Shown: piece after piece, positions 1-50,059 of the stretch
How the letters are laid out: each line of letters begins with the position of its first letter
Numbering within the stretch: the stretch's first letter is position 1
DNA from: a virus
IMG/VR virus record: IMGVR_UViG_3300032249_000542
Coordinates: 64,001 to 128,000 of that record
Strand: one strand, 5' to 3'
Length of the DNA: 64,000 nucleotides
Translations under genes and position numbers: made by a program
The notes under the pieces: model-generated
The model's input: the letters and a program-made list of their open reading frames with translations, nothing else
Told to the model about the DNA's origin: nothing
The model's database searches: none

Positions 1-1548
1 GTAAATACTTCATCTAGTAATGTAACTAATACCTATAGTATTTTATCGGATGTTCTTATTGCTAATTTATCTAGTATTATGATTGGTGCAGCTGATTATG
101 CAATCGCTGGAAAATCAATAAGTAATACCTCAAAGATTATTACTTTGATGAATCCAAGAACAATTACAGTTGGTTCGATTGCAAACTGTCTAGTTGTTAC
201 TGCAAACTCTGTTGCGACAGCTGTTCCTATTGTTCAAACTCAAGGTGCGACATACACCACAGGAACAGTAATTCATTCTATTACTGGATTCAGGTCAATA
301 GGCGGTTATATAATTAATGGTTCCGGAGAAAACTATCGAGTTGGCGATGAAGTTATTTTTGGATCAAATCCAGTATTAACTGATGGTGTTGGTGCAGCTG
401 CAAGGGTTAGTGCTACAGATACATCTGGTAGAATATTAAAATTAGATATCGAACCAACTAGATTAACTGGTACTGCAAACGTAACTGCAAATAGTCACAT
501 TGTAACTGGAACAGGAACAAGTTTTGACACAGAAATAACAGTTGGTGATAGAATTATTGTAAATGGTGAATCAAGATTTGTTAATGCAATAACTAGTGCA
601 ACTTCTATCAATTGTAACTTAGTGTTTACATATACGACTGCTGGGATAGATGCAGCAATTGGTAAGTATTGGATATACCCAACTGGTGGAACAAACTATA
701 CACAAAATAGTTTTCCATCGATTACGATACGTTCAAGAATCGGTACAGGTGCAAATATAGCTATAGATTCGTGCATGGGTGACGGTGAGAATCTAACTGC
801 AACTGGTTCTAAATTACCAGGAGCTATTGTTAAGATTAAAATTGTTGACGGTGGTAGAGGATATAAGTATATTCCGTTCATTAACTTAACAGAATCTGGT
901 GATGGACTAGCAAGTGCAGAAGCAGAGATTGAAAGTTCGTTTGTAACCTTTGAAGGTAAGTGGACAACTTCTGATTCCATCATTTCTTCAACAGAAAGAA
1001 AAATTCAAGGTAAAGATTATTATGTAGACTATTCTTACATAACATCGTCAAAAGTTGAATTTAGAAAATACAAACAGATTTTAAAAGATTTACTACATCC
1101 TGCAGGTCTAATCAACTATGCAAGATATCGCATAGATAAAGAAGCGAATGTAACAAACTTAGGTGTTACAACTATCAGTCCTAATAAAGTAATTTCTGGT
1201 AAAGTTAATATTTCACAAGGGGGAATATATATTACTGGAGTGAATACTAAATTTGTTGATGGATATAATAAAGGTTATATTGGTATAGGTGATGGAATTG
1301 ATGTCAACGGCAGAATATATGTTGTTGAATCTATTATTAGTAACACAAACGTACAGGTATCACAAGTAACAACAACTCCACCTTTAGGAGTTATTTCTGC
1401 ACCAGTTCCGTTCAACGTAACGGCAAATCTAGAACCATTTATGATTCTTGGTGGAGTAACAAATGTTGCACCTGGAACTGCTGAAATAATATTAGAAAAT
1501 GGGGATATGTTAGTAACAGAAGATGGAAATATTATCACAACGGAATAA
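1..1548 (+). CDS. gp7: Baseplate wedge initiator gp7-like protein, C-terminal part (5' truncated by window)
   Basis: Frame is open from base 1, so the track start at 79 is internal. Motif GKWTTSDSIISS..KIQ..DYYVDYSY....F..YK..LK.LLHPAG is typical of gp7-like proteins of aquatic T4-like phages. Lies upstream of gp8. Confidence 0.75.
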   Translation, partial: VNTSSSNVTNTYSILSDVLIANLSSIMIGAADYAIAGKSISNTSKIITLMNPRTITVGSIANCLVVTANSVATAVPIVQTQGATYTTGTVIHSITGFRSIGGYIINGSGENYRVGDEVIFGSNPVLTDGVGAAARVSATDTSGRILKLDIEPTRLTGTANVTANSHIVTGTGTSFDTEITVGDRIIVNGESRFVNAITSATSINCNLVFTYTTAGIDAAIGKYWIYPTGGTNYTQNSFPSITIRSRIGTGANIAIDSCMGDGENLTATGSKLPGAIVKIKIVDGGRGYKYIPFINLTESGDGLASAEAEIESSFVTFEGKWTTSDSIISSTERKIQGKDYYVDYSYITSSKVEFRKYKQILKDLLHPAGLINYARYRIDKEANVTNLGVTTISPNKVISGKVNISQGGIYITGVNTKFVDGYNKGYIGIGDGIDVNGRIYVVESIISNTNVQVSQVTTTPPLGVISAPVPFNVTANLEPFMILGGVTNVAPGTAEIILENGDMLVTEDGNIITTE

Positions 1549-1551
1549 CAA

Positions 1552-2820
1552 ATGGCAAATACAAAAATTACAGAACTGGTAATAGCATCGTCACTAGATT
1601 CTAATACACAAAATACTTTGTTTCTAATTGTAGACAGACAAAGTGGAACTCCAACAACTAAACAAGTTGAAATGAGTATATTAGATACGGTGTTTGATTA
1701 CACTACCTCAAAAGCAAACTCCGCAGCACTATATGCTAACGGTGCTTTTGTTCAATCAAACTCTGCGTATGGATCACAGAATACAACTGGCATATATGCT
1801 AATGCTGCGTTCCTACATGCGAATAATGCATACGGTTCTCAGAATACAACTGGTGTTTATGCCAATGCAGCATTCCTAAAAGCGAACACTCCATCGGATG
1901 TTGCGAACTCTGCGGCACTATATGCTAATGGTGCATTCGTACAAGCAAATGCTGCTTTTATTGCCACAAACACTTCTTCTGCCGGAAGTTATGCAAACTC
2001 AGCATTTTTAAAAGCTAATTCCGTATATGAATTGGCAAATCTCAATTACTTGCAAGCTGCCACTAGATTAAATGTATCATATACTGCTGCCGATGCTTAT
2101 TTGTTCGACCAATATGTTGGAAACAATCCAACTATCCGTGTATCTCCAGGTACAACTATTGCGTTTGATTTGAATTATGTTGGATCAAATTCTTTCATGA
2201 TTCGTCAATCTATTGGTGGAACTAATGTATCAACTAATTTAATTCACGTTTCACCTACTGGTGTTATATCACTTAATGATGAAGCGCAAGGTAAAAACTC
2301 AGGTATATTGTTCTTTAAAGTTCCAGTTGATATTGTCAACACAGATTATGCATATCAGAATTCCAATAATCCAGGAACCATGCGTGGAATAATTCGTATT
2401 GAGCAACATATTGGTGTTGTGCAAAATATTGCAAACGCAGGATACGTTCAAGCTAATACTCCTTCGCATGTTGCGAACTCTGCGGCACTTTATGCTAACG
2501 GTGCGTTTGCTCAAGCGAATGCTGCTTTCTTAACTGCAAACACTCCGCCTGCTATTGCAAACTCTGCTGCGTTATATGCTAATGGTGCGTTTGTACAATC
2601 GAATGCTGCTTTCCTAACTGCAAATACTCCTTCACATGTTGCGAACTCTGCTTCAACATATGCTAACGGTGCGTTCTTATCGGCGAATTCTGCATACAGT
2701 TATAGTTCAAATAATACTACAGCAAAGTGGGCCGCAACTGCTCCAACAACTGTTCAGGCAGCAATTGATAGACTTGCAAATGCAGTATATACACTAAGAA
2801 GTAATTCGCCAATACCTTAA
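1552..2820 (+). CDS. Fibre-like virion protein: KITEL N-terminus, ANxA[YF]xx heptads, central cupredoxin-like domain
   Basis: 422 aa. N-terminal MANTKITEL..LFLIVD..TTKQ; two heptad blocks flank NPTIRVSPGTTIAFDL...LFFKVP...YAYQ...MRGII. Confidence 0.6.
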   Translation: MANTKITELVIASSLDSNTQNTLFLIVDRQSGTPTTKQVEMSILDTVFDYTTSKANSAALYANGAFVQSNSAYGSQNTTGIYANAAFLHANNAYGSQNTTGVYANAAFLKANTPSDVANSAALYANGAFVQANAAFIATNTSSAGSYANSAFLKANSVYELANLNYLQAATRLNVSYTAADAYLFDQYVGNNPTIRVSPGTTIAFDLNYVGSNSFMIRQSIGGTNVSTNLIHVSPTGVISLNDEAQGKNSGILFFKVPVDIVNTDYAYQNSNNPGTMRGIIRIEQHIGVVQNIANAGYVQANTPSHVANSAALYANGAFAQANAAFLTANTPPAIANSAALYANGAFVQSNAAFLTANTPSHVANSASTYANGAFLSANSAYSYSSNNTTAKWAATAPTTVQAAIDRLANAVYTLRSNSPIP

Positions 2821-2841: not shown

Positions 2842-4419
2842 ATGGCAAATACAGTAACGACAATTAAAACTAGGTTTAGTACCTCGGAACAGTTCAAGGA
2901 AAGTTTCTCTGAAGCTAATCCTACTGTTTCTTATGTTTTTATCGGAAATCATCTAGCATATACAGATGAAAATACACCCACAGATATTTCAGACACCGTT
3001 CAAGATGAAAAGGTTGTTTGGAATAATATGATTGGTGGTAAAAAGATTACAGGAAATGACGTTGAACATGTTGCTCCTCGTGTCAACTGGACGGCAAATA
3101 CAAAGTATCGTCAATTCGATGATCGCATTGATGCTTTAACATTATTATCTGCAAACACTACACAAAATCTAAAACCAATGTATGTGATTACAACTGGTCG
3201 TAGTGTGTATAAATGTTTGTCAAATAACACTTCAGCAAATTCTACGATAGAACCTACCGGTGATTATGCAACATCCAATGGTGTTATTGATACGGCAGAT
3301 GGTTATCGTTGGAAGTACATGTTCAATATTAAACCAGGGAATAAGTTTTTAACGCTAGATTGGATTCCTTGCCCAACAAGTAATGCACAATTAGATTACA
3401 CTTCCAGTAGGTTGGGAGTTGTTGATGGTGAATTAACGACCATTGTTGTTACTAACGGTGGAACAAATTACAATCACGCAAACGTCAATGTAGTATCATT
3501 TATTTCTGGAACAAATAGACTTACAATTTCTAATACAACGGTTGTATTGAATCAGTTTAATATTCCTACACTTGCAAACCTCACTAACATGTCAGTTACT
3601 GGTCCAGGTATTCGCCCAGGAACATACATCTCCGACATCAATGTTGCATCTGGTATTGTAACTCTTTCAACCAATACTAATAGTACAGGGGGAAATACAA
3701 ATCCTCTATCATTGACAAGTCGTGTTGCAATTATCGGAGACGGAACAAAAGCAGAAGCATCTGTTTTCATCAACAATACAGGTAATGTTGCAAACATCAA
3801 ATTAACAACAGTAGGTATAAACTATTCTTTTGCAAATGCAACTGTCTATGGTTCTGGAACTGGTGCAATAACTAGAGTTATTTTATCACCGAAGTATGGA
3901 CATGGATATAATCCAGCAAAAGAGTTGGGTGCTAAAAATATTATGGTTGCAGTTCGTGTGGGCGAAATTGATTCTACAGAAGGTGGAAAAATAACCGCAA
4001 ACACTAACTTCAGACAGTATGGAATCCTAAGGGATCCGCATAAATATGGTGAAACCTCAATTGTATCATCGGCAAATGCTAACTCTGCGATATCGCAAAC
4101 TACCGATTTGAATGTTGTTCCTGGGTCATTATATCAAGCAAATGAATTTGTTTATCAAGGAACTATTTCAAGTCCATCTGCATACGGATATGTGGTAGAT
4201 CAAACCGAATCTGTTATTAAGTTGACAGGAGTTCGTGGAGTAATGGCAACAGGATTGAATTTGCTTGGAGCAAATTCTGCAATTCAACGAACCGTTGTTT
4301 CAATTAAAAATCCAGATTTTCAATCATTCTCTGGTGACATTTTACATGTTGAAAACGTAACTGCGATTGATCGAGAAGAAGGTCAAGCAGAAGATATAAA
4401 ATTTGTTCTTAAATTCTAA
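2842..4419 (+). CDS. gp8: Baseplate wedge subunit gp8
   Basis: Motifs W.NMIGGKKI, PRVNW, VYKCLSN, DGYRWKYMF, FRQYGIL.DP, SGDILHVEN..I.R...Q.EDIK.VL.F. Confidence 0.9.
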   Translation: MANTVTTIKTRFSTSEQFKESFSEANPTVSYVFIGNHLAYTDENTPTDISDTVQDEKVVWNNMIGGKKITGNDVEHVAPRVNWTANTKYRQFDDRIDALTLLSANTTQNLKPMYVITTGRSVYKCLSNNTSANSTIEPTGDYATSNGVIDTADGYRWKYMFNIKPGNKFLTLDWIPCPTSNAQLDYTSSRLGVVDGELTTIVVTNGGTNYNHANVNVVSFISGTNRLTISNTTVVLNQFNIPTLANLTNMSVTGPGIRPGTYISDINVASGIVTLSTNTNSTGGNTNPLSLTSRVAIIGDGTKAEASVFINNTGNVANIKLTTVGINYSFANATVYGSGTGAITRVILSPKYGHGYNPAKELGAKNIMVAVRVGEIDSTEGGKITANTNFRQYGILRDPHKYGETSIVSSANANSAISQTTDLNVVPGSLYQANEFVYQGTISSPSAYGYVVDQTESVIKLTGVRGVMATGLNLLGANSAIQRTVVSIKNPDFQSFSGDILHVENVTAIDREEGQAEDIKFVLKF

Positions 4420-11384: not shown

Positions 11385-11717
11385 ATGGCAAATACGTACA
11401 GAAAGAAAATTGCTGGTGGTGTTGGTGTAACACTAACTGATGTTTATGTTGCAAATAGTGGAATTCAAGGTATTGCAATTGGTATGACTGTTGCAAACAT
11501 ATCTACCGCTCCTGTATCTGCAAACGTCAAAGTGTTTAGCGCAGCAACATCAAATTCAGCATTCGTTGTTAGAGAATCAACGATTGCAATCGGTGGTACA
11601 TTAGTTCCACTTGGTGGCGACCAAAAACTTATTTTAGAAGCAGGAGATAAGGTACAAGTGCAAATGTCAGCTGCAGGTTCTGGCGATGTAGTTATATCGG
11701 TTCTGGAGATTAGTTAA
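11385..11717 (+). CDS. Small beta-rich virion protein, paralogue of 21548-21886
   Basis: 110 aa. Shares VY.A......V.N, KL.LEAGD and S.LE terminus with 21548-21886. Confidence 0.65.
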   Translation: MANTYRKKIAGGVGVTLTDVYVANSGIQGIAIGMTVANISTAPVSANVKVFSAATSNSAFVVRESTIAIGGTLVPLGGDQKLILEAGDKVQVQMSAAGSGDVVISVLEIS

Positions 11718-18483: not shown

Positions 18484-18816
18484 ATGGCAGACTTCGTTGA
18501 ACTCACATTAGAAAAAGGCGCTACGTTTAGTAGTACAATTACAGTTAAAGATGACCAAGGATTGGAACAAAATTTAACTGGATACATCGCACGTTCGCAA
18601 ATGCGTAAATCGTATTATGCGAATTCAAAACATGATTTTACTGTTACAGTTACAGCACCATCAATTGGATTAATTACCATGGGAATGACTGCTGCAAATA
18701 CTTCTAACATATCTCCTGGTCGTTACGTGTATGACGTTGAAATAGAAAATAACTCTGGTGATGTTACAAGAATATTTGAAGGAATCGTAACCGTTCTACC
18801 GAATGTTACCAGATAA
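18484..18816 (+). CDS. Small conserved virion/adaptor protein
   Basis: 110 aa. L..E.GATF, LTGY...SQMRKSY, G.I....TA..T....GRYVYDVE....V.RI.EG.V.V.P.VT, a pattern common in T4-like tail regions. Confidence 0.7.
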   Translation: MADFVELTLEKGATFSSTITVKDDQGLEQNLTGYIARSQMRKSYYANSKHDFTVTVTAPSIGLITMGMTAANTSNISPGRYVYDVEIENNSGDVTRIFEGIVTVLPNVTR

Positions 18817-21547: not shown

Positions 21548-21886
21548 ATGGCAAGTGCAATTCCATTAAATTCGTTTAAAACTATAATTTCAAATGTTAC
21601 TAATGCAGCGAATACTGTATATACAGCTCCTATCGGAGTTACAACAGTAGTTCTATTAGCACAAGTTTCTAATATTGATACTTCAACAGTTACCGTAACA
21701 GCATCGCATCGTCGTGGTGCGAATACAACACGCTTGATTGCAAACGTAAAGATTCCTATTCAAGATGCTGGAAGCTTGTTGACTGGCAAACTTGTTTTAG
21801 AAGCTGGAGATGGTTTCTCTATCCAAGCAGATAGAATAAATGCTGCTGAACTAACATTATCAATACTAGAAACTGCTAATGCGTAA
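21548..21886 (+). CDS. Small beta-rich virion protein, paralogue of 11385-11717
   Basis: 112 aa. VYTAP.G...VVL.AQV.N, GKLVLEAGD, LSILETAN. Confidence 0.65.
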   Translation: MASAIPLNSFKTIISNVTNAANTVYTAPIGVTTVVLLAQVSNIDTSTVTVTASHRRGANTTRLIANVKIPIQDAGSLLTGKLVLEAGDGFSIQADRINAAELTLSILETANA

Positions 21887-36100: not shown

Positions 36101-37537
36101 TTTAGATATATCGTAGGAACATCACTTTACACGACTAACTTCACTCCAAGCATTACACCACTAACAGCAATTACCAATACACAAATTCTTACGTGTCAGT
36201 CAAATAGGTTTATAGATAATAGCGCAAGTAATCGTACAGTATCCGTAGCTACTGGATCTCCATCAGTCCAAGCCTTCAGTCCATTTGCTCCAAACACAGC
36301 ATACTCTGTTGCGAACACAGGAGGATCATTTTATAATCAAGCTGCTGGTGATGGCTTAAAGTTTCTTACATCAAATCATTCTTTTGGTATTAATGGGGAC
36401 TTTACAATAGAGATGTGGTACTATCCAACAGGACAAACTGGAGATTATAATTTACTTTGGGCTCTTACAAATAGCACTTCGGATGACAATCCATCAATAG
36501 GATTCTTTTTTAATTCCTCTTATAATTTATTCTGGTTAAATAATGGTGGAGGAGGAAACGGATTTGATGCCGGAACTGGTATTAATATAGTTCCTTTTCA
36601 ATGGACTCATATTGTAATCTCACGTTCAGGAGCAAACACTCGTTGTTGGACTAATGGCAAATTAAGAATTAGTAATTGGGGTGTTAGTGCTATTAATACT
36701 AGTAAAAGATTTTTATATGTTGGAATGGATCGTACCGCTTCAGTCACAACTCCCGGGTATACTTCAGGGTTTAGATTTGTAAACGGAAACGCATTATATT
36801 CTGGAGCAAGTGATTTCACACCACCGTCTGCACCACCTACCGCAGTTGCAAATACTGTCGCATTAATAAATGGAACTAATGCTGGAATTTATGATGGTAC
36901 TGGTAAAATCAATTTTAGAACAGTTGGTGATGCAAGGGCAAATACATCAAACGCTAAATTTGGTTTATCAAGTTTTTCAGCTGGAACAACAGTCGATACT
37001 GGAAGTTATCTATCGACAAATGACATTTACCTTCCAGAATTTGGTACTGGAAATTTTACGGTAGAAGCGTGGGTTAGATTAGACACCACAACATTTGACC
37101 ATACTGCTATTGGCCCAATAGTTAGTTATGGTAATGGTGGAGGAAATGGTCCGTTAGGAACATATTCTGCTTGGCAACTTGATATTTTAAATGGTGGAGC
37201 TGGTTTAAAATTCTACAGATATGATGGATCTGAAACTATACAAACTTTTTCTGGAACAATTAATGCAAATAGATGGTATCATGTTGCTATATGTAGATCA
37301 GGAACATCATTAAGAGCATTTATTGATGGAACTCAAATTGGATCAACAGCTACATCTAGTACAAATTATTCTAGAGTTAATGGAACAAATAGAATTTTGG
37401 TTGGTGTACAATCTGGTGGTGGTGGAAATGCTCAGTATTATAGATTCCCAGGATTAATTCAAGAACTTCGTGTTACTAAATCAGCACGTTACACAACAAA
37501 CTTTACACCAGAAACTAAAGCATTTCCAAACAAATAA
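33104..37537 (+). CDS. Multi-lectin virion protein, paralogue of 26747-31423 (2 Ig-like repeats, 5 LamG-like domains)
   Basis: Collinear with 26747-31423 and shares linkers such as IFGANTVNVYVSATDP, LTLQNR..HNNH.FID.S and QGTFTPFS. Confidence 0.8.
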   Translation: MSKAYDNAKELEYISFDSTNNKINFSIGISTNNAPVAASVYDANTTSNGSFTLPAGNTASRPASAANGAIRFNTTIGAGEMYFEKSGWSTFVGEPLITSVSPETFNGTSGTAFEIIGVRFDQDAQIYFVAANGTSYLAGSTAFYSPTRIVATTPRTFTVAYEPLSVKIVQNSGTYTKENAIDCGGVPSWITTAGNLGTIFGANTVNVYVSATDPDGNAISYSITSGSLPSGLTLTSANGLIQGLNPGVTTNTTYNFTITATDAVNNTDRAFNYVILNRPPVWNTAATLSDITDDNVSSYVANTTVNAYDPDGGSISYTLASGSLPAGMTFVTANGALVGPVTPVDSNTTSTFTVTATDVGSLTNTRTFSLTVQSPLPDDNFANTVLLLRTNSDTVIKESSTNNLPITVLADSRASNFNPYNTSWSGYFDGSSSIRTVANPNLAIGTGDVTVEFWMNTFDNSDNGIFGTTNEAAWNDNSWSFIYSDSQISLYNGNVGGVFWSIATGTLHDGNWHHIAIVRSSGTWQVFVNGVSKGTTTTQGSRSLGNNTWRFAVGCIEPSNADLKFTGYISNFRLNNTALYSSNFTPSTTPLTAITGTTLLTCQSNRFVDNKTSPTSFTAGSFPQIVGLSPFAETDTSNGSMYFDGTGDYLTIPNNTAFSYNSTFSAELWYYSTHTSCTDVIPFSGNGNWDFIIPAATTVAFRWFVPGYGDTNAHTMIPSSWNHIAVAVSGGRLSFYLNGTRMYTNDAVSFSLGGSDPSRIGYGSNSIMKGYISNVRVTRGSTPYDPTQTTITVPTSPLTTVSGTTFLTLQNRKGHNNHAFIDESKSKSLITRFGNTTQGTFTPFSQTGWSNYFTSAGLSIPYADALQLQNTNWTIESYFNLSSASAEFCVMGASNGGGGVPKYFMGGNWNTSFGYTANRATFFTYTSGGSRFIDVPFTWEIGRWYHMAAVYTHSNTTITLYINGVSVGSMVFGIDNCTGNILIGRNGENGGVINGYISNFRYIVGTSLYTTNFTPSITPLTAITNTQILTCQSNRFIDNSASNRTVSVATGSPSVQAFSPFAPNTAYSVANTGGSFYNQAAGDGLKFLTSNHSFGINGDFTIEMWYYPTGQTGDYNLLWALTNSTSDDNPSIGFFFNSSYNLFWLNNGGGGNGFDAGTGINIVPFQWTHIVISRSGANTRCWTNGKLRISNWGVSAINTSKRFLYVGMDRTASVTTPGYTSGFRFVNGNALYSGASDFTPPSAPPTAVANTVALINGTNAGIYDGTGKINFRTVGDARANTSNAKFGLSSFSAGTTVDTGSYLSTNDIYLPEFGTGNFTVEAWVRLDTTTFDHTAIGPIVSYGNGGGNGPLGTYSAWQLDILNGGAGLKFYRYDGSETIQTFSGTINANRWYHVAICRSGTSLRAFIDGTQIGSTATSSTNYSRVNGTNRILVGVQSGGGGNAQYYRFPGLIQELRVTKSARYTTNFTPETKAFPNK

Positions 37538-37962: not shown

Positions 37963-39327
37963 ATGGCATCTAAGGTCTATGACAATATAGTTGAATTAAG
38001 TAAAATTCAATATATTTCTGGTAATAATACTATAAACTTTATCGGTACTCCTATTAATAATGGAGCTGCTATTGTTGATGCAACCGCCGGTCTATATGCT
38101 AATGGTGCGTTTTTACAATCTAATTCATCATTTAGTACGGCAAACTCTGCGTCACTTTATGCCAACGGTTCTTTTGCACAAGCTAATGCTGCGTTTAATT
38201 CTGCAAACAATGTAGCACCACAAATACAACCTGCGTTTAGTACGGCAAATTCTGCGGCACTTTATGCTAATGCTGCATTTATAAAAGCAAACACACCATC
38301 GGATGTTGCAAACTCTGCGGCACTTTATGCTAACGGTGCTTTTGTAAAAGCAAATTCTGGAGCTCAGTATGATGCGAACTCAACATCAACTGGATATTTT
38401 TCAATGCCAATTGGAACAACAGCAGAACGTCCGGCTTCACCAATTGCAGGTTCAATCAGATACAATACTACATTAGGTAGAATAGAAGGATATACTGCCG
38501 GTGCCGGATGGCAAAATATTCTCTCAGATCAGTACACCATCCAATACTTAGTTGTTGCTGGTGGTGGTGCAGGTGGTGGAGGTAATAATGGTGAAGGTTC
38601 TGGTGGAGGTGGAGGTGCTGGAGGTTTAGTTCAGTCATCTTTAGTTGTTACTCCTGGAAATGAATATCCAATCGTTATTGGAGCCGGTGGTAGTAGTGGT
38701 CCAACTGGTGATGCTGGAAATGCTGGTGGAAACACAACTGCATTTTCTCAAACTGCTATTGGAGGTGGACGAGGATCACAGGGTCATGCTGCAGGTGGTC
38801 AGAATGCTACTAGTGGTGGATCAGGTGGTGGTGGTGGTGCTTTTGGTAATAGTTCTGGTGCTGGAACTCCTGGGCAAGGTAACCCTGGTGGTAATCCTGG
38901 AGCTCCTCCTGGTGGTTCAAGTGGAGGCGGCGGTGGTGGTGCAGGTGCTTCAGGTGGTGCTGGTTCAGGCGGTGGTGCAGGTGCTGGTGGTGTAGGACTT
39001 GAATGGCAATCACTTGGAACATTCTATGCTGGCGGCGGTGGTGGCGGAGGATGGAATGGAGGTCCTGGTGGAGCTGGCGGTAGCGGAGGTGGTGGTCAAG
39101 GTGGTGCTCCTAATGGTTCCGGACAAACTGGTGGTAGCCCAAACACCGGTGGAGGTGGTGGTGCTGGTGGAGAAAATCCAGCTAGCACTTCAGTAGGTGG
39201 TGCGGGTGGCTCAGGAATAGTCATCGTTCGTTATACGGGAACACAAAGAGGTAATGGTGGAACCATCAGTCAATCAGGTGGTTATACATATCATACGTTT
39301 ACAGGTTCAGGAACATTCACAGCTTAA
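37963..39327 (+). CDS. Fibre with AN heptads, connector and Gly-rich head
   Basis: MPIGTTAERP...RYNT, YLVVAGGG...GSGIVIVRY...GGYTYHTFTGSGTF. Confidence 0.7.
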   Translation: MASKVYDNIVELSKIQYISGNNTINFIGTPINNGAAIVDATAGLYANGAFLQSNSSFSTANSASLYANGSFAQANAAFNSANNVAPQIQPAFSTANSAALYANAAFIKANTPSDVANSAALYANGAFVKANSGAQYDANSTSTGYFSMPIGTTAERPASPIAGSIRYNTTLGRIEGYTAGAGWQNILSDQYTIQYLVVAGGGAGGGGNNGEGSGGGGGAGGLVQSSLVVTPGNEYPIVIGAGGSSGPTGDAGNAGGNTTAFSQTAIGGGRGSQGHAAGGQNATSGGSGGGGGAFGNSSGAGTPGQGNPGGNPGAPPGGSSGGGGGGAGASGGAGSGGGAGAGGVGLEWQSLGTFYAGGGGGGGWNGGPGGAGGSGGGGQGGAPNGSGQTGGSPNTGGGGGAGGENPASTSVGGAGGSGIVIVRYTGTQRGNGGTISQSGGYTYHTFTGSGTFTA

Positions 39328-39339: not shown

Positions 39340-41706
39340 ATGGCTACAGCAGGAAATACAGTAAATAAAATACAGAGGTTTTCGTATACTAATGCGAACA
39401 ACACAACTGTCTATAACACCGACTTAACTGTTAAGGGAAATCTTACAGTCGTTGGAGCATCCGTATATGCACAAACTGAAGTTGTTCTAGTTAAAGACAA
39501 CATCATAACACTTAATGCGGCGATTGGACAATCCGATACACCACTATTCAATGCAGGTATTGAAGTTGATCGTGGCAATCAACCAAACGTATCGTTGATA
39601 TGGAGTGAATCTAATCAAGCATGGCAATTTACCAATAACGGTTCAACATATGAATCTCTTGGTGGAGGTTCATCTGGTGTTTATGCCAATAGTGCATTTT
39701 TACAAGCAAACGGTGCATACGCTCATGCTAATGCAGCATTTATATCTGCGAACAATGTAGCACCTCAAGTACAACCTGCGTTTGATAAAGCTAATGCTGC
39801 ATACGCTCATGCTAATGCAGCATTTATATCTGCGAACAATGTAGCACCTCAAGTACAACCTGCGTTTGATAAAGCTAATGCTGCATATGCGTTTGCAAAT
39901 ACAACTACTGCATGGGGTACACGACAAGCATTCAAAGCTACTGCTGGACAAACAGTATTTTCTCCAGGGTCTGGTTATCTCTCAGGATACATCGACGTTT
40001 ATTATAACGGTATTAAACTATACGACACAGAAGATTATACTGCAACAGATGGTATTAATGTCACTCTTGCAAATCCTGCTACAGTAAATTCTATTATTGA
40101 GATTGTTGGATTTGGTGCAAACGTACCTGTTGCAAATATCTACGTTTTGAATTCAATGGCAAGTATTGTGAATCGTCAAACATTCTATGCGAATAGTGGA
40201 CAAACAACATTCACAGTAACAGGCGGATATCGTGTTGGGTATATTGATGTATACTACAACGGTATTAAAGTCAATATTCCAGAAGATGTAACAGCAGGAA
40301 ATGGTACAACGATTAGTTTTGTTACTTTAACTCCAACAGTAAATTCTATTATTGAAGTTGTTGGGTTGACTCCTAATGTTGCACTTGCAAATGCTATACC
40401 AATTACAGGTGGTACAATTTCCGGAGGATTAAATCTTGCAGGTAATGTAAACCCAACAACTGATAACACTTATTATTTGGGTTCGTCAACAAATCGTTGG
40501 CATAGTTTATTTGTTGGTCCAGGGTCAATTGATATTGGTGGATTAAAGTTAAGTAATGTTGGAGGAGTTCTTTCTATATCTTCTCCAGGGTCAGCACCAA
40601 CTCCAATCGCAGGAGAAGATAATTGGGTTCGTGCTCAAGCTAATGCATCTTTTTTACAATCCAATTCTGCATTTACATCTACCAATGCATCTTTTTTACA
40701 AGCTAATTCTGCATTTATATCATCTAATGCTGCGTTTAATAAAGCAAACTCTGGAGTCCAATACAATGCAAACTCATCAACTACTGGTTCGTTAGCTGTA
40801 CCAATTGGAACAACTGCTGAACGTCCTGCAAATCCACAATCAGGAATGCTTCGATATAATACAACAACCGCATCATTAGAATCATACATGCCTACCGTTG
40901 GGTGGAAAACAGTTACTTCAGATTCATTTACGGTTGAGATTTTAATTGTTGGTGGTGGTGCTTCAGGTGGATATTCTGGTGGTAACGGATACGAAGCTGG
41001 AGGTGGTGGTGCTGGTGGTTTACTATATTACGGAGCAGAAACTCCATTTACAGGAGCAGCTTTAGTATTAAATCCCGGAACATCTTATACTGTTACCATT
41101 GGTGCAGGAGGAGCTGGAACTAATAGCACTACTGCTAATGGAAGTAATAGTGCATTCCACACATATACAGCTGAGGGTGGCGGTTCTGGTGGTAACAACA
41201 ATAATAGTGCAGTAGGATATCCTGGAGCTTCTGGTGGTGGAGGACTACAAGCTAATGCAGGAGGTGCGGGTAAATCCGGACAAGGATACCCTGGAGGAAA
41301 TGGAACAGGTTCAAAAGCAGGTGGCGGAGGTGGTGCTGGTGGCCCTGGAGGAAATGGTGACAATCCAAATGTAGGTGGTGGACATGCTGCAGTATATGGC
41401 ATTTCTGGTACAAACATTCAGTATGCTGGTGGTGGTTCTGGCGGTAATGCAGCAAATACTACTACTCAAGGTGGAGGAGGTGTTGCTGGACCATCGGGAA
41501 CAAACCATGCTACTATTGCTAATAGAGGTTCTGGTGGTGGAGGTTCAAATCCTGGAGGACCAACTGGTTCAGGCGGTACAGGAAGTTCTGGTGTAGTTAT
41601 TCTTCGTTATCTAGGAACACAAAAAGCTTCAGGTGGTACTATAACTTCAATTGGTGGTTATACTGTACACACATTCACAGGTTCAGGAACATTCTCGGTT
41701 ACGTAA
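39340..41706 (+). CDS. Mosaic fibre with AN heptads, connector and Gly-rich head
   Basis: N-terminal module shared with 19020 (DNIITLNAAIGQ...AGIE.DRG), two GQT.F...GYIDVYYNGIK domains shared with 21879, connector VPIGTTAERP, Gly-rich head. Confidence 0.7.
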   Translation: MATAGNTVNKIQRFSYTNANNTTVYNTDLTVKGNLTVVGASVYAQTEVVLVKDNIITLNAAIGQSDTPLFNAGIEVDRGNQPNVSLIWSESNQAWQFTNNGSTYESLGGGSSGVYANSAFLQANGAYAHANAAFISANNVAPQVQPAFDKANAAYAHANAAFISANNVAPQVQPAFDKANAAYAFANTTTAWGTRQAFKATAGQTVFSPGSGYLSGYIDVYYNGIKLYDTEDYTATDGINVTLANPATVNSIIEIVGFGANVPVANIYVLNSMASIVNRQTFYANSGQTTFTVTGGYRVGYIDVYYNGIKVNIPEDVTAGNGTTISFVTLTPTVNSIIEVVGLTPNVALANAIPITGGTISGGLNLAGNVNPTTDNTYYLGSSTNRWHSLFVGPGSIDIGGLKLSNVGGVLSISSPGSAPTPIAGEDNWVRAQANASFLQSNSAFTSTNASFLQANSAFISSNAAFNKANSGVQYNANSSTTGSLAVPIGTTAERPANPQSGMLRYNTTTASLESYMPTVGWKTVTSDSFTVEILIVGGGASGGYSGGNGYEAGGGGAGGLLYYGAETPFTGAALVLNPGTSYTVTIGAGGAGTNSTTANGSNSAFHTYTAEGGGSGGNNNNSAVGYPGASGGGGLQANAGGAGKSGQGYPGGNGTGSKAGGGGGAGGPGGNGDNPNVGGGHAAVYGISGTNIQYAGGGSGGNAANTTTQGGGGVAGPSGTNHATIANRGSGGGGSNPGGPTGSGGTGSSGVVILRYLGTQKASGGTITSIGGYTVHTFTGSGTFSVT
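39714..39887 (+). repeat. Perfect 84-bp tandem duplication (28 aa, four heptads)
   Basis: Copies start at 39714 and 39798 (tgcatacgctcatgctaatgcagc...gataaagctaatgc) and are identical by eye. Confidence 0.9.
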
Positions 41707-41711: not shown

Positions 41712-42962
41712 ATGTCAAAAGCAGCTAATAACGCAACAGAACTAGATTACATAAACTATATTCCATCGAATAATAGTATAAACTTTACGGCTACAGTAAT
41801 TGGTAATGGTTCTCCTATTGCAGATGCAACGGCAGGAGATTATGCAAATTCATCATTCATAAAAGCGAATAGTGCATATACAAGTCAGAATACAACTGGA
41901 ACATATGCTAATGCTTCATACGCACAAGCAAACTCAGCGGCACTTTATGCTAACGGTGCGTTTATAAAAGCTAATTCTGCAGCACAATATGGTTCAAACA
42001 CTAGTACCACATCGGCACTTGCATTACCTTATGGAACAACTGCGGAACGTCCAGCAAGTCCTCAAGTTGGAATGCTCAGATACAACTCATCATTGAGTAG
42101 AGTAGAAGCATATCTTTCTGCAACTGGATGGGCAAGTGTTATTGCCGACACATATCAAATAGACTATTTGGTTGTTGGTGGTGGAGGTGGAGGAGGTTCT
42201 CGTCACGGAGGCGGTGGCGGTGCAGGTGGATTTAGAGCTGTTACAGGATTTCTTGTAACTGGAGGAACTGCATATCCCGTTACTGTTGGTGCAGGTGGTC
42301 CGGGAAATAGTGATGCTGGAACTGCAACTGTTGGTACAAGCGGTAGTGATTCTGTTTTCTCAACTGTAACATCACTTGGTGGAGGTGCAGGTGGAGGAAA
42401 CGCTGCTCCAGGTGGTTTGGTTGGTGGTTCAGGAGGTGGTGGTGGAGCAGGTAGTCCTGCTGGAGCTGCAACAGCAATAACTCCAGTTTTTGGAGAAACT
42501 ACAACTGTACAGGGTTATGCTGGTGGAAGTGGTGCAAGTCCGTTTAATCAAGATTATCTTGGTGGCGGTGGTGGTGGTGCAGGTGGAGTTGGACAAGTTG
42601 CCAATGGCGGAAAAGCAGGTGGTGCTGGTGCAACATCAGCAATAACTGGTTCAACTGTAACTTACGCTTGCGGTGGTGGTGGTGGTGCGTTCCAAGGACT
42701 GGGTGCTGGCGGTCCTGGTGGAGATGGTGGATCCAGTAACGTAAACGGCGGTAGAGGTCAAGGTAACAATGCAGGTAGTAACGGTACAGCATATACTGGA
42801 ACTGGTGGAGGCGGTGGTGGTTCTACGGGAGGATTCAATGGTGGATCAGGAGTAGTTATTATTCGTTACACAGGATCACAAAAAGGTTCAGGCGGTACTG
42901 TAACGTCATCGGGTGGTTATACGATACACACGTTTACAGGCACAGGAACATTCACAGCATAA
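41712..42962 (+). CDS. Fibre with AN heptads, connector and Gly-rich head
   Basis: N-terminus resembles 33104 and 37963 (SKA..N..EL.YI......N.INF). LPYGTTAERP. GSGVVIIRY...GGYTIHTFTGTGTF. Confidence 0.7.
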   Translation: MSKAANNATELDYINYIPSNNSINFTATVIGNGSPIADATAGDYANSSFIKANSAYTSQNTTGTYANASYAQANSAALYANGAFIKANSAAQYGSNTSTTSALALPYGTTAERPASPQVGMLRYNSSLSRVEAYLSATGWASVIADTYQIDYLVVGGGGGGGSRHGGGGGAGGFRAVTGFLVTGGTAYPVTVGAGGPGNSDAGTATVGTSGSDSVFSTVTSLGGGAGGGNAAPGGLVGGSGGGGGAGSPAGAATAITPVFGETTTVQGYAGGSGASPFNQDYLGGGGGGAGGVGQVANGGKAGGAGATSAITGSTVTYACGGGGGAFQGLGAGGPGGDGGSSNVNGGRGQGNNAGSNGTAYTGTGGGGGGSTGGFNGGSGVVIIRYTGSQKGSGGTVTSSGGYTIHTFTGTGTFTA

Positions 42963-43932: not shown

Positions 43933-44844
43933 ATGTCAACTAATTTTTATTTTAATAATTTTCCTAAAGATCACATAACCGAAGAACAACTTTTAGTTGA
44001 AGATTTGGTTATTGAGGCAATGCAAATCTATGGCATGGATGTTTTTTATCTTCCAAGAACTAGTCGTGATGTAGTAGATACAATCTATGGTGAGGACACA
44101 TTAAAACAATACATTAATGCCTACCCAATTGAAATGTATCTTGAGAATGTTACGGGTATGGAAGGTGAAGGAGACTTCATGTCCAAGTTTGGTCTTGAGA
44201 TTCGTGATGAGATGACCTTACTTGTTTCACGCCGCAGATTTAAATACTCAACAGGTGCATCTAATCTAATTCGTCCACGTGAAGGTGATTTAGTTTATGT
44301 ACCTTTATTACAAAACTTTTTTGAAATAACTTTTGTCGAACATGAAAACGATCAGGCAATGTTCTATACGTTAGGACGTGGTCGTGGTGGTAATGTTTAT
44401 GTGTATGCATTGAAGTTGAAACAGTTTGTATTCTCAGATGAAGTTGTTGATACTGGAGTTACAGAAGTTGATGAACAAGTGTTTGATTTGTATAGAAGAA
44501 CGAATGTTCCTTATGCTGAAACTGGTAATAATATTAGATACTTGTTAAATGAAATTGTTTATCAGGGAAGTAGTCTTGCAAATGCAAATGCACAGGGTAT
44601 AGTTCATTCAGTTAATACTACAGGTAACAATTATTTGGATCTTGTTCGTGTTCAAGGAAACTTTGCAAACGGAACTATTATAATTGGTGCGACAAGTAAT
44701 GCACGTTACTTAATGCTTGGAACTATAGACGACATGACACCATTTGATACACAAACAGAAGATTTGATTGATAACAATGCTATTGAGTTTGAATCAGATG
44801 ACATCATCGATTTTACTGAAGTTAATCCATTTGGTGAACCATAA
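43933..44844 (+). CDS. gp14: Neck protein gp14
   Basis: EQ.L..DL..E..Q.YG.DV.Y.PR, SKFGLEI.DE, RP.EGDLVY.P, DF.E.NPFG. Confidence 0.95.
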   Translation: MSTNFYFNNFPKDHITEEQLLVEDLVIEAMQIYGMDVFYLPRTSRDVVDTIYGEDTLKQYINAYPIEMYLENVTGMEGEGDFMSKFGLEIRDEMTLLVSRRRFKYSTGASNLIRPREGDLVYVPLLQNFFEITFVEHENDQAMFYTLGRGRGGNVYVYALKLKQFVFSDEVVDTGVTEVDEQVFDLYRRTNVPYAETGNNIRYLLNEIVYQGSSLANANAQGIVHSVNTTGNNYLDLVRVQGNFANGTIIIGATSNARYLMLGTIDDMTPFDTQTEDLIDNNAIEFESDDIIDFTEVNPFGEP

Positions 44845-45617
44845 TGTTAGGTAATGCACACTTTTACAATCGTACCATTCGCAAAATTGTTATTGCAATG
44901 GGTACAGTTCTAAACGACATTCAATTAGTAAGATATACTAAGGATGGACTGACGGCAAAAGAAAAGTTTAAAGTACCTTTGTCGTATGGTGCCAAAGAGA
45001 AGTACATTGTTCGTATTAATTCAGATCCAACATTAACTAAATCAGTTGCTGTTGTAGTACCACGTATTTCATTTGAACTTACTGGTATGAGTTACGATTC
45101 ATCACGCAAACAACAAACAACATTGATGAATTGTTCTACTGGCACTAATACAACTTCAAAGACACAATATTTGCCAGTACCATATGACTTTACGTTTGAC
45201 GCTGCAATCTATGTGCGTAATACCGAAGATGGTACACAAATATTAGAACAGATTCTTCCATTCTTTACACCAGACTTTACTGTAACAGCAAAGTTGGTAC
45301 CTAGTTTAAATCGTTCATATGACTTACCTATTATTCTAAATTCAGTTTCAAATGAAGTAGATTATGAAGGAGACTTTATGACTACTCGTTTAATTATTTG
45401 GAACTTGACATTTACAGTTAAAGGTTACATATTCCCAGGAGTAAAAGACTCCAAGATTATTCGTGGTGCAAATACACGTATTGTTGATCTTGCAAACACA
45501 TCACAAGTTTACGTGAAAATTAATTCACAACCTAATCCTGCAAACACCGCTCCTGGTACTCCGGATGATGAGTTTGGATTTGCTGAAATTATAACTGAGG
45601 CTCCGTATGCATCATGA
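44844..45617 (+). CDS. gp15: Tail sheath stabiliser/completion protein gp15
   Basis: FY...IRK.V...G...N, VPL.YG.KEK, PR.SFE, PVPY, QI.EQILPFF.P. Confidence 0.95.
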   Translation: MLGNAHFYNRTIRKIVIAMGTVLNDIQLVRYTKDGLTAKEKFKVPLSYGAKEKYIVRINSDPTLTKSVAVVVPRISFELTGMSYDSSRKQQTTLMNCSTGTNTTSKTQYLPVPYDFTFDAAIYVRNTEDGTQILEQILPFFTPDFTVTAKLVPSLNRSYDLPIILNSVSNEVDYEGDFMTTRLIIWNLTFTVKGYIFPGVKDSKIIRGANTRIVDLANTSQVYVKINSQPNPANTAPGTPDDEFGFAEIITEAPYAS

Positions 45618-48097: not shown

Positions 48098-48142
48098 GAC
48101 GATAAAGAAAAAATTTGATCCCTCAACTAAAGGAGAAATCCA

Positions 48143-50059
48143 ATGGCATTTAGAAATCCGCAGTCTGTTCAACTTTCAGCCGGCGTAAGCGTATCAGAAG
48201 TTGATCTGACTACTGTTATACCGTCTACTAGTACCTCTATTGGTGCTTTTGCCGGTCCGTTTTCTTGGGGCCCAGTTAATGAAGTGATTACTATATCTGA
48301 TGAAACTCGTCTTGCTGATCGTTTCGGTACTCCAACGTCCAGCAACTATGAATACTGGTTCTCTGCAGCAAACTTTTTAGCATACTCGAACTCATTACGT
48401 GTTGTTCGTTCTGCAAATACAACATCAACACTCAACGCTAGTGCAAATGGCGCAGGTATACTTATTGAGAATGACACAGACTATGACTTAAATCATTCCA
48501 CAGCAAATACACAAAACGGTCCATTTACTGCAAAATACGCAGGAGAGATTGGAAATTCATTAAAGATTTCTATCTGTCCTACTGCTGCTGCGTTTTCATC
48601 TAATCTAACATCAACAACAGGAGTAACATGTAACGCTACTTCTGCTGGAGCAACAACGATTGGTGTTACTGGTTCAGCAACAGCTAATCTAATAGTGGGA
48701 ACTCTAATTTCTTTTGACGGTGGAACATCTTATGTTCGTGTTGCTAACCTAACTGCTAACTCAATTGGTATAGGTTCAGCAGTCGGAACAGGTGGTATTG
48801 TTGTAGGTGCTCCACTTCTACGTAAGTGGGAATATGCAGATAACTTTGGTATTGCTCCAGGAACATCTGACTATGCTACTTCAGTTGGTGGACTTAATGA
48901 CGAAATGCACGTTATTGTTATTGACGAAGATGGTAAGTTTACTGGTGCAGCAAATACGATTGTAGAAAAATGGGCATTTGTATCTAAGGCATCTGATGCT
49001 AAATCAGCTGATGGTTCATCAAACTACTATAAAAATGTTATCAACGATAAATCAAGATATGTTTGGTGGTCAGGACATCAACCAGGTGGTACTAATTGGG
49101 GTACTGCTGCTGCAGGTTTAACATTCACACAAATTAATACCAACTTTACAGCATCCCTATCTGCTGGTGCAGATGGCACAATCGGTAATGCAGATATTAT
49201 TGCAGGTTATAATAAGTTTGCAAATCCTGATTCAGTAGATATTGGTCTAGTTATTTCTGGCCCAGGTAATCAAACAACAGTTACAAGCATGATTTCTTTA
49301 GTAGAAAATCGAGGAGATGCTGTATTATTCATCTCTCCAAATAAAGCAAATGCTGTAGACAACGCAGGAGATGAGGTAACTGATATTGTTGCATATCGTG
49401 ACAATCTAGCTTCATCATCATATGTTGTTATGGACTCTGCATGGAAATATCAGTACGATAAGTATAATGACGTATATCGTTGGGTACCATTAAATGGTGA
49501 CATCGCAGGTCTATGTGCTCGTACAGATTTAGAACGTGATCCTTGGTATTCTCCAGGTGGTTTCTCACGTGGTCAGATCCGTAACAGTATCAAACTAGCA
49601 TGGAATCCAACACAAACAGAACGTGATGATTTATATATTAAAGGTATAAATCCAGTTGTTACTTTCCCAGGTGAAGGTACAGTTCTATTTGGCGATAAGA
49701 CTATGTTAAGTAAGCCTTCGGCGTTTGATCGTATCAATGTTCGTAGACTATTCATTACACTAGAAAAAACTATTGCCCGTGCTTCAAGATCGTCATTGTT
49801 TGAATTCAATGACCAGTTTACAAGAGCTCAATTTGTTTCTATCGTAGAACCATTCTTGCGTGATGTGCAAGGTCGTCGTGGTATTACAGACTTCCGTGTA
49901 GTTTGTGACGAAACAAATAACACCGCAGAAGTAATTGATCGTAACGAATTCCGTGGTGATATCTATATCAAACCGGCACGTTCAATTAACTTTATCCAAC
50001 TAAACTTTGTTGCGGTTCGTACAGGCGTAAGCTTTGAAGAAATCGTTGGCAGATTCTAA
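48143..50059 (+). CDS. gp18: Tail sheath protein gp18
   Basis: GV.V.E.DLT, F.WGP, PW.SP.G..RG, FDRINVRRLF, IKPARSINFI.LNFVA. Confidence 0.97.
   Translation: MAFRNPQSVQLSAGVSVSEVDLTTVIPSTSTSIGAFAGPFSWGPVNEVITISDETRLADRFGTPTSSNYEYWFSAANFLAYSNSLRVVRSANTTSTLNASANGAGILIENDTDYDLNHSTANTQNGPFTAKYAGEIGNSLKISICPTAAAFSSNLTSTTGVTCNATSAGATTIGVTGSATANLIVGTLISFDGGTSYVRVANLTANSIGIGSAVGTGGIVVGAPLLRKWEYADNFGIAPGTSDYATSVGGLNDEMHVIVIDEDGKFTGAANTIVEKWAFVSKASDAKSADGSSNYYKNVINDKSRYVWWSGHQPGGTNWGTAAAGLTFTQINTNFTASLSAGADGTIGNADIIAGYNKFANPDSVDIGLVISGPGNQTTVTSMISLVENRGDAVLFISPNKANAVDNAGDEVTDIVAYRDNLASSSYVVMDSAWKYQYDKYNDVYRWVPLNGDIAGLCARTDLERDPWYSPGGFSRGQIRNSIKLAWNPTQTERDDLYIKGINPVVTFPGEGTVLFGDKTMLSKPSAFDRINVRRLFITLEKTIARASRSSLFEFNDQFTRAQFVSIVEPFLRDVQGRRGITDFRVVCDETNNTAEVIDRNEFRGDIYIKPARSINFIQLNFVAVRTGVSFEEIVGRF

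Follow-up and report, generated by a model that had tools for sequence, protein, structure and literature searches.

The window analysed here, a stretch of 64,000 nucleotides (positions 64,001 to 128,000 of the IMG/VR virus record IMGVR_UViG_3300032249_000542), comes from a lake T4-like phage and holds a block of structural genes that includes a gp7-like baseplate wedge subunit, other baseplate, fibre, neck and sheath genes and the major capsid protein gp23 (Table 1). Six of the fibre genes contain arrays in which the dipeptide Ala-Asn (AN) recurs every seven residues, as the sequence-only reading of this DNA had reported.

Table 1. Features of the structural block, with counts of AN, of the reversed dipeptide NA and of the AN expected
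Feature	Position	Strand	Assignment and counts
gp7-like baseplate wedge subunit, C-terminal part of 876-aa protein	1..1548	+	PHROG 17744/2885; whole protein AN 8, NA 1, expected 4.0
422-aa fibre protein, two AN heptad arrays (residues 45-173, 284-389) either side of a beta domain	1552..2820	+	AN 26, NA 8
gp8 baseplate wedge protein, without repeats	2842..4419	+	PHROG 438, E 3e-80; Pfam Phage-Gp8; AN 14, NA 3, expected 3.5
VrlC-like/DUF4815 virion protein, 2035 aa	4430..10537	+	PHROG 358; Pfam DUF4815; AN 27, NA 8, expected 10.6; AN sites aperiodic
Structural protein, 204 aa	10767..11381	+	AN 6, NA 2, expected 3.0
Small fibre-associated protein, 110 aa	11385..11717	+	PHROG 1276; AN 4, NA 0, expected 0.6
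Peptidase_S74, fibre assembly protein	11717-13045		Pfam
Fibre assembly protein	18484-18816		PHROG 3304
Tail fibre protein, 841 aa	19020..21545	+	PHROG 17885; AN 12, NA 6, expected 5.7
112-aa paralogue of the 110-aa protein	21548..21886	+	PHROG 1276; AN 4, NA 3
1622-aa fibre with three long heptad arrays, probable stalks, at residues 62-230, 253-512 and 612-1067	21879..26747	+	AN 113, 97 in arrays
1558-aa adhesin: TIG, He_PIG, five Laminin_G_3	26747..31423	+	Pfam; AN-poor overall, 12 vs 8.0 expected; 8/12 AN in first 424 residues
556-aa fibre: N-terminal heptad arrays and C-terminal Gly_rich_2	31427..33097	+	Pfam PF21722; AN 18
1477-aa adhesin: He_PIG and Laminin_G_3	33104..37537	+	Pfam; AN-poor, 15 vs 10.4 expected
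454-aa fibre: heptad array (residues 36-141) and Gly_rich_2	37963..39327	+	12/12 AN in array
788-aa fibre: three heptad arrays and Gly_rich_2	39340..41706	+	AN 24
416-aa fibre: heptad array (residues 35-98) and Gly_rich_2	41712..42962	+	AN 8
Neck proteins gp14 and gp15	43933..45617	+	PHROG 460 and 227; gp14 AN 3, NA 5; gp15 AN 3, NA 1; numbers too small alone
Tail sheath gp18	48143..50059	+	PHROG 23; aligned with T4-type sheath chains of solved structure
Tail tube, portal, prohead protease, scaffold (interior/non-exposed control set)	50086..55828	+	PHROGs
Major capsid protein gp23	55847..57187	+	PHROG 138; AN 6, NA 1, expected 2.6

Across the 31 ORFs of the block (16,937 aa), AN occurs 339 times against 145.2 expected (2.33-fold, z 16), the largest deviation among all 400 dipeptides, while NA stands at expectation (154, 1.06-fold). 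Outside the block AN is likewise at expectation (134 against 125 in the remainder of the genome). The fibre repeats alone do not account for this: masking of the heptad arrays leaves 158 AN against 86.8 expected (1.8-fold, z about 8) and 87 NA, and many relatives without arrays near gp8 still stand at about twofold. Nor does a tendency of Ala and Asn to crowd into shared stretches: when the non-array sequence was shuffled inside blocks of 10-40 residues, AN still reached z scores of 7.6-8.2, with NA staying at about 0; a binomial test of AN against NA gave p = 7e-6. At the DNA level, GCNAAY is in excess in frame 0 only (339 against 89), with no excess in frames 1 and 2 or on the antisense strand. 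Because the excess is confined to the reading frame and all eight codon pairs contribute, the signal acts at the protein level, as first proposed, and neither a DNA motif nor codon-pair bias explains it. A GC-content effect was also ruled out, the AN-rich loci spanning GC 0.30-0.56 and the AN-poor loci 0.28-0.55.

The excess is directional and restricted to exterior proteins. Outside the heptads these carry 89 AN and 32 NA for 36 expected, against 7 AN and 4 NA for 8.5 expected in the interior or non-exposed set, a total that also takes in the terminase, gp13, gp16 and a second tube paralogue. The individual counts from which the sequence-only reading had started proved exact: gp8 has 35 Ala, 52 Asn, 14 AN and 3 NA (3.5 AN expected), the two proteins of about 110 aa have four AN each, and UvsW and gp47 have none. 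All 10 AN of the sheath fall at residues 76-402, with 3 NA and 4.0 AN expected over residues 1-403; the conserved inner C-terminal part (404-638) has none for 0.9 expected. The gp7-like protein has 8 AN against 1 NA (4.0 AN expected) and the VrlC-like protein 27 against 8; gp14 and gp15 offer numbers too small to be judged alone. The suggestion that SN and GN are weaker variants of AN was not upheld, as SN (1.10-fold) and GN (0.91-fold) show no enrichment and TN falls below expectation (0.70-fold).

Comparison with relatives showed that the excess is lineage-specific. The AN-rich trait is bimodal across 96 gp8 loci, 64 of which carry it, and its distribution over the gp8 tree shows strong clustering (9 trait changes against 27 in shuffles). 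It is absent from T4 and the cyanophages, with which the sequence-only reading had proposed a comparison, and from OC and BUCT608 (all 1.0-1.2-fold), so that it is not a general property of these folds or of all T4-like phages. Three phages in culture, DLP_6, Cr30 and RHph_I1_18, do have it, which opens the trait to direct bench testing. In the literature searched we found no description of a directional AN excess on exposed virion parts, and a dipeptide excess that is at once directional, lineage-specific and confined to such parts is unusual.

The heptad arrays hold 181 of the 339 AN pairs and follow the consensus A-N-[SA]-A-[FY]-[LVAI]-[QYK] (in short, A-N-x-A-[FY]-x-x), with the seven-residue spacing unbroken over many repeats and about 65 heptads in the longest array. 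Relative to the Asn, position -3 favours aliphatic and small residues (L 4.6-fold, V 2.0-fold, A 1.7-fold, I 1.4-fold), position +1 favours S (3.6-fold) and A (3.3-fold) with T at only 0.6-fold, and position +3 is dominated by F and Y (8-fold and 6-fold). No Pfam adhesin repeat family matched the arrays. AlphaFold2 (AF2) gave poor models of both proteins modelled (mean pLDDT 49 for gp8 and 42 for the 422-aa fibre); in the fibre, the arrays were predicted as helices at residues 52-74, 82-111, 120-138, 145-162 and 289-357 (pLDDT about 30), interrupted, at the same low confidence, at TPSD/GSQNTT linkers. The periodicity and these models suggest that the arrays are most likely adhesin-type coiled-coil stalks with layers of Asn, that is, long and nearly uncharged alpha-helical rods in which Asn would recur at one core position and the small Ala beside it would be part of the stalk packing. 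The aromatic residue at +3 makes a second register possible, with Asn at a and F/Y at d.

Natural adhesin stalks can have Asn at position d of as many as 37 heptads in a row, often with Thr next, which directly follows the Asn in about half of cases (PMC13580157). The present arrays resemble the stalks of trimeric autotransporter adhesins in their strict heptads, in an Asn held at a fixed position over dozens of heptads, in the aliphatic residue at -3, perhaps in the small polar residue after the Asn, and in belonging to a fibrous surface protein. They differ in that Ser or Ala rather than Thr mostly follows the Asn, F/Y recurs three positions beyond it, charged residues are nearly absent and Ala is very abundant.

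The remaining AN sites are scattered over exterior proteins rich in beta structure, namely gp8, the giant VrlC-like protein, the wedge proteins, the fibres and the outer sheath domains. When 2,750 such sites from 57 loci were pooled over the relatives, a weak context emerged, [TS]-A-N-[TV]-x-[IV]-x-F, with T enriched 2.17-fold at +1 (2.2-2.5-fold across sets), I 2.06-fold and V 1.69-fold at +3, and T 1.61-fold at -2; no context of this kind was found at the AN sites of AN-poor loci. The alternation would suit the start of a beta-strand: Ala, Thr/Val, Ile/Val and Phe would share one face, and the Thr at -2 and the Asn would lie on the other. Three gp8 sites (AN 213, 317 and 331) are placed at strand starts in the confident part of the AF2 model. 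In columns where the clade has AN, gp8 outgroups carry pairs such as TP/GK/GL and VG/VD/SD, and AN-poor orthologues have the turn formers G, D, P and S. Where the Asn is kept and the Ala lost, Ser is the main replacement (17%), then Gly or Thr, and the Asn of SN is conserved even better than that of AN. From this we infer that non-heptad AN is a strand-start or turn motif that builds Asn-rich outer surfaces in this lineage.

Individual sites turn over. Only about 6 of 45 gp8 AN columns are widely shared, subclades having gained AN at differing columns of one fold, and orthologues at 28-50% identity keep a 2-4-fold excess with most individual sites different, which argues that the excess is renewed and not merely retained. 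This looks like pressure for number, not place. Conservation of the AN residues is modestly higher than that of other Ala and Asn (Ala 0.45 against 0.36; Asn 0.59 against 0.51).

The reading that we favour, with a probability of about one half, is that the excess reflects a sequence habit of this lineage at the protein level, made up of two structural elements, the stalks and the strand starts. It also draws support from the finding that no gene family tracks the AN trait. Against it, a purely structural motif should keep fixed positions, so that the few shared gp8 columns count against a structural explanation, and the same folds in T4, the cyanophages, OC and BUCT608 manage without the excess. 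The exterior restriction and directionality would also be expected of a surface recognition motif. If only structure is involved, AN would provide a recognisable signature for Asn-layered stalks and Asn-rich surfaces in a very large uncultured group of lake phages.

An unlikely alternative is that AN outside the arrays, often as ANT, is an acceptor for virion modification, most plausibly by a cytoplasmic transferase of phage or host origin that glycosylates Asn or the Thr next to it and so would coat the tail and baseplate with glycan. The sequence-only reading had proposed AN as an acceptor motif for Asn modification; the computation neither supported nor refuted that proposal, and none of the outcomes that the reading had listed as refuting turned up. 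A directional, protein-level excess that separates exterior from interior proteins, is bimodal by lineage and keeps its number high while its positions change is consistent with an acceptor, as are the Thr enrichment at +1 and the glycosyltransferases of the genome. Half of the AN pairs, however, lie in probable coiled-coil cores, where the stalk Asn would be better read as a core residue than as an acceptor. Of the 2,750 AN sites, 25.9% stand in N-x-S/T, against 19.4% for Asn elsewhere (about 1.3-fold; 29% against 23% in the window alone), which is less than the enrichment of Ala (1.54-fold) and Phe (1.39-fold) at the same +2 position. Among these 2,750 sites T is not enriched at +3, where I, V and F are favoured, and D/E, expected at -2 of a PglB-type D/E-x-N-x-S/T sequon, is not enriched there, the preference being for T, S, Y, F and V.

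Virion glycosylation in mycobacteriophages is O-linked, on Ser/Thr-rich C-terminal tails; there too, phage-encoded transferases decorate capsid and tail proteins, but the modification is not placed on a dispersed dipeptide. Ala or Gly is said to precede the glycosylation sites of the chlorovirus PBCV-1, and we know of no identified chlorovirus Asn-transferase. In PBCV-1, cytoplasmic enzymes that the virus itself encodes N-glycosylate the capsid at the atypical sequons NTXT/NIPG (PMC9614988, PMC5408694). Chlorovirus sequons include NTGT, NTET and NTAT (PMC9614988), which the Thr at +1 recalls. The present phage resembles the chloroviruses in having its own GT-like and sugar-activation genes, in the enrichment of Asn-Thr on exterior proteins and in the lack of dependence on N-x-S/T. 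It differs in the absence of Thr enrichment at +3 and in its bacterial hosts. The HMW1C/NGT (GT41) enzymes, which act on N-x-S/T and which the sequence-only reading had invoked, offer a parallel in the cytoplasmic Asn modification of large surface adhesins; by contrast, a profile search of the complete genome for GT41 (PF13844), to which the controls responded, found none, and S/T at +2 is enriched weakly and not specifically.

The genome does encode a GT4, a GT2, a GT62/Anp1-like protein and a GT-like protein of 283 aa, together with a sugar-activation operon of kinase/HAD/nucleotidyltransferase/sugar-O-methyltransferase-like genes. Several GT-like genes and the operon lie outside the window, and one of these genes, or a host enzyme, could supply a transferase. 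Unlike what a chlorovirus-type system would lead one to expect, these genes do not co-vary with the AN trait across the 13 genomes profiled, and no glycosyltransferase family was found to co-occur with AN richness, a test that the sequence-only reading had proposed. No family of any kind occurs in five or more of the 7 AN-rich genomes while missing from each of the 5 AN-poor ones. Among 199 ORFs, only the one for the 283-aa protein matches all three large AN-rich contigs and none of four other large contigs (the intermediate G007 and three AN-poor ones), a distribution in favour of an acceptor; as a marker it fails, since neither G007 nor any phage in culture has it, not even the AN-rich Cr30, DLP_6 and RHph_I1_18. 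The GT62/Anp1-like gene is present in nine AN-rich or intermediate genomes but also in the AN-poor OC and in two small phages without the excess, and a 257-aa ORF at 52515-53288, considered as a further marker, has no match among cultured phages. The glycosyltransferases may instead serve hypermodification of the phage DNA. We regard as a shade more doubtful still the specific proposal that non-stalk A-N-(T) serves as acceptor for an undescribed virion glycosylation (or other Asn/Thr modification) coating the baseplate, fibres and sheath exterior, a system that would then be widespread in uncultured freshwater T4-like phages as well as Cr30, DLP_6 and RHph_I1_18 and be a counterpart of chlorovirus capsid N-glycosylation. 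If AN were such a mark, it would reveal a new phage protein-glycosylation system that would bear on host recognition, particle stability and phage immunogenicity.

Less probable again is inherited history, in which an ancestral baseplate and fibre module rich in AN was handed down in these lineages, its stalk and non-stalk genes now and then recombining, and its composition has yet to decay. Clustering of the trait on the gp8 tree and the modestly better conservation of the AN residues agree with this, as does the nature of the AN-poor parts of the block, which are widely shared adhesin domains (Laminin_G_3, He_PIG) probably acquired elsewhere. Simple persistence is nevertheless hard to square with divergent gp8 orthologues that keep the excess at mostly different sites, with its presence from GC 0.30 to 0.56 and with its confinement to the reading frame.

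That AN is recognised by an assembly factor peculiar to this lineage (a chaperone for fibre or baseplate), or is a contact with host surface polysaccharide made through T-x-N hydrogen-bonding faces, is highly improbable: the exterior bias, the placing of T at -2 and N at 0 on one strand face and the fibre assembly proteins of the block (PHROG 3304, Peptidase_S74) would suit it, but no chaperone family co-varies with the trait, and the enriched proteins include sheath and capsid, which follow different assembly routes. The AN excess of the capsid protein gp23 is itself mild, and is similar in AN-poor relatives too.

The source genome, of which the window spans bases 64,001-128,000, is complete (169,777 bp) and belongs to a freshwater, uncultured T4-like phage, in which PHROGs and Pfam place genes for baseplate wedge, fibre, neck, terminase and sheath proteins at window positions 1-50,059, all on the plus strand. 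Across a structural block of 31 ORFs (16,937 aa), with expectations taken from each protein's own composition, Ala-Asn (AN) occurs 339 times versus 145 expected (z = 16), the largest deviation among all 400 dipeptides; GG is second (z = 8) and the reverse pair, NA, is at expectation (154 versus 145). The remaining 184 ORFs of the genome hold 134 AN versus 125 expected. The observation is therefore confirmed, and is broader than the sequence-only reading knew. Its hand counts were all right: gp8 (35 Ala, 52 Asn) has 14 AN and 3 NA where 3.5 are expected, the sheath has 10 AN, every one within residues 76-402, two ~110-aa proteins have four apiece, and UvsW and gp47 have none. Its proposal that SN and GN are weaker variants failed, as neither is enriched (1.10x and 0.91x) and TN is depleted (0.70x). 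The excess survives masking of the heptad repeats: 158 AN remain versus 88-93 when residues are permuted inside 10-, 20- or 40-residue blocks, which preserves local composition (z 7.6-8.2), with NA (87) on the shuffle mean.

That the signal lies in the protein, despite varied codons, was borne out. GCNAAY occurs 339 times in the reading frame versus 89 expected from position-specific base frequencies, an excess that is absent in frames 1 and 2 and on the antisense strand and to which all eight AN codon pairs contribute. AAC encodes the Asn of AN in 44% of cases (148/339), versus 31% of all Asn codons in the block, and the rest of the genome has the same tendency.

Heptad arrays with the consensus A-N-[SA]-A-[FY]-[LVAI]-[QYK] were found in all six fibre genes thought to amplify the dipeptide (starting at 1552, 21879, 31427, 37963, 39340 and 41712); together with a few short runs in other proteins that the mask also caught, they hold 181 of the 339 pairs. 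The arrays match no Pfam family, and four of the array proteins end in a C-terminal Gly_rich_2 domain. AlphaFold models the 422-aa fibre with array helices that break at TPSD/GSQNTT linkers and flank a beta domain, at a pLDDT of only ~30; modelling a single chain of an oligomeric fibre can give such low values. In the arrays an aliphatic residue sits at -3 relative to Asn and a small one at +1, which is the layout of the Asn-at-d layers in trimeric autotransporter stalks, some of which keep Asn at d through dozens of consecutive heptads (PMC13580157). An aromatic residue (F/Y) also recurs three positions past Asn, permitting another register (Asn at a, aromatic at d). Probable Asn-layered coiled-coil stalks would account for about half of the AN excess. 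Asn would be a core residue in such a stalk, so no modification need be invoked for these pairs.

The other 158 pairs are spread over proteins that lack repeats. Exterior non-fibre proteins (wedge proteins, gp8, the VrlC-like giant, a 204-aa protein, an 841-aa fibre, sheath, capsid, gp14 and gp15) contain 89 AN and 32 NA versus 36 expected, and interior or non-exposed proteins (tube, tube paralogue, portal, protease, scaffold, both terminase subunits and gp13) contain 7 and 4 versus 8.5, in keeping with the proposed directional enrichment on the virion exterior. The sheath's AN are likewise confined to its first ~400 residues: past residue 403, where it aligns strongly to solved T4-type sheaths, there are none, and this C-terminal part forms the inner layer, according to published work on T4 gp18. 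Three structural proteins open with M-A-N-T (MANTVTT at 2842, MANTKIT at 1552 and MANTYRK at 11385), so the motif also occurs at the extreme N-terminus. Among the few AN-poor fibre proteins is a 442-aa fibre (1 AN, 2.2 expected) whose Peptidase_S74 domain is a predicted self-cleaving intramolecular chaperone. Two giant adhesins are AN-poor apart from stretches near their N-termini. Both combine Laminin_G_3 (ConA-like lectin) domains, about five apiece, with Ig-like He_PIG/TIG domains, and both are probably carbohydrate-binding receptor proteins, because they weakly match neurotoxin receptor-binding and trans-sialidase lectin folds.

Positions of features discussed in the text
Feature	Location	Domains or matches
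Peptidase_S74 tail fibre, 442 aa	window 11717-13045	C-terminal Peptidase_S74 (endosialidase chaperone)
Giant adhesin, 1558 aa	window 26747-31423	Laminin_G_3 + He_PIG/TIG
Giant adhesin, 1477 aa, paralogue of the 1558-aa one	window 33104-37537	Laminin_G_3 + He_PIG/TIG
257-aa ORF	window 52515-53288	
Second tail-tube paralogue	window 57302-57829	gp19-like, PHROG 45
GT62/Anp1-like glycosyltransferase	genome 136,100-136,891 (outside window)	Pfam PF03452, 31.5 bits; PHROG 1574
Tightly packed operon	genome 151,971-157,985 (~151.9-158 kb; outside window)	

IMG/VR supplied 97 gp8 loci for a survey of relatives, to which nine cultured phages contributed their structural regions. Of the 17 closest relatives, whose gp8 is 45-92% identical, 16 again have AN as the top dipeptide (2.1-2.8x), and masked ratios over all loci fell into two groups, with 64 of 96 gp8-tree rows at or above 1.6x, 25 below 1.3x and 7 between. 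Among cultured phages, DLP_6 (1.92x), Cr30 (1.82x), RHph_I1_18 (1.66x) and phiM12 (1.36x) are higher, and OC (1.08), BUCT608 (1.00), ACG-2014d (1.17), P-SSM2 (1.12) and T4 (1.00) lower. GC content was ruled out as a cause, since AN-rich loci span 0.30 to 0.56.

Outside the heptads, the 2,750 AN sites pooled from 57 AN-rich loci have a context of [TS] at -2 (T 1.61x), T/V/A at +1 (T 2.17x, V 1.63x), A/F/T/S at +2, I (2.06x) or V (1.69x) at +3, Y at +4 and F at +5. It is absent around Asn without a preceding Ala and around AN sites of AN-poor loci. Such alternation would fit the opening residues of a beta-strand, Ala facing the hydrophobic side and Thr(-2) and Asn the opposite one. The only confident part of a gp8 model (residues 196-348) agrees with this strand-start reading: AN 213, 317 and 331 are predicted to open strands, and AN 245 lies in a short helix. 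The other half of the excess is genuine: a lineage-specific motif, [TS]-A-N-[TV]-x-[IV], carried by exterior proteins and as yet unexplained. For the excess overall we favour a structural idiom without modification (probability about 0.5).

That AN is an acceptor for modification we consider unlikely. N-x-S/T occurs at 25.9% of pooled AN sites versus 19.4% of other Asn; at +2, Ala and Phe are more enriched than Ser or Thr, and T at +3 and D/E at -2 are not enriched. The enriched Thr immediately after Asn resembles the chlorovirus sites NTGT, NTET and NTAT (PMC9614988) and equally recalls adhesin stalks, whose core Asn is often followed by Thr (PMC13580157). The genome encodes a GT4 and a GT2, no GT41, and a GT62-like protein with homologues (40-57% identical) in T4-like phages DLP_6, Cr30, OC, phiM12/phiM7/phiN3 and RHph_I1_18; in small phages this gene sits among early and DNA-metabolism genes. 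A separate operon encodes a predicted nucleotidyltransferase-HAD fusion (Arch_glmU/HddC-like), an APH-like kinase, a TylF/NanM-like methyltransferase, a HAD-like protein and three proteins without assigned role, two of them in PHROG 13607/DUF7796. It resembles a pathway for making a methylated, activated sugar, which could be destined for DNA, the host envelope or the virion. Among its products is a 283-aa protein with a faint GT-domain match. Gene content was compared across seven large contigs from relatives, together with five genomes of cultured phages. Among the contigs, the 283-aa protein is the sole ORF of 199 present in all three AN-rich ones and none of the four others (one intermediate, three AN-poor); four further ORFs, including the GT62-like protein and an Hsp20, share this pattern except that they also occur in the intermediate contig. 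As trait markers both candidates were rejected: the 283-aa protein is missing from every cultured phage, AN-rich ones included, and the GT62-like gene turns up in OC, which is AN-poor, and in two small non-T4 phages whose virion proteins lack a directional excess. Co-occurrence of AN-rich phages with particular glycosyltransferase families was not found: over 13 genomes, no family occurs in five or more of the seven AN-rich ones while being missing from all five AN-poor ones. The virion may be modified by an enzyme of the host, or by a transferase whose divergence hides it from BLAST clustering.

AN labels are strongly clustered on the gp8 tree, where the entire clade with cultured cyanophages is low. 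In AN-poor phages gp8 has AN at expectation, with TP, GK, GL, VG, VD, SD and similar pairs at the columns where the clade has AN, so the excess belongs neither to the fold as such nor to T4-like phages as a whole. One result that would have counted against the sequence-only reading, an equal excess in all T4-like orthologues, was thus not observed. When 37 gp8 orthologues are compared pair by pair, Ala is conserved at 0.45 within AN versus 0.36 elsewhere and Asn at 0.59 versus 0.51, the Asn of SN being higher (0.68); where Asn is retained, Ser is the commonest substitute for Ala. Only about 6 of 45 AN columns are widely shared, and subclades bear AN at differing columns of one fold; new gains therefore replenish the excess, which is not simply a relic, and this is the weightiest objection to a reading from structure alone or history alone. 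Inherited history is still less probable than a modification acceptor, recognition of AN by an assembly factor or a polysaccharide is improbable, and the remaining probability falls to an explanation not considered here.

Two further genes lie beyond the sheath. The 257-aa ORF that separates the portal from the prohead genes matches nothing in PHROG, Pfam or cultured phages; it is kept in the three AN-rich contigs and the intermediate one and was not found in three AN-poor contigs. Directly past the major capsid gene lies the second tail-tube paralogue.
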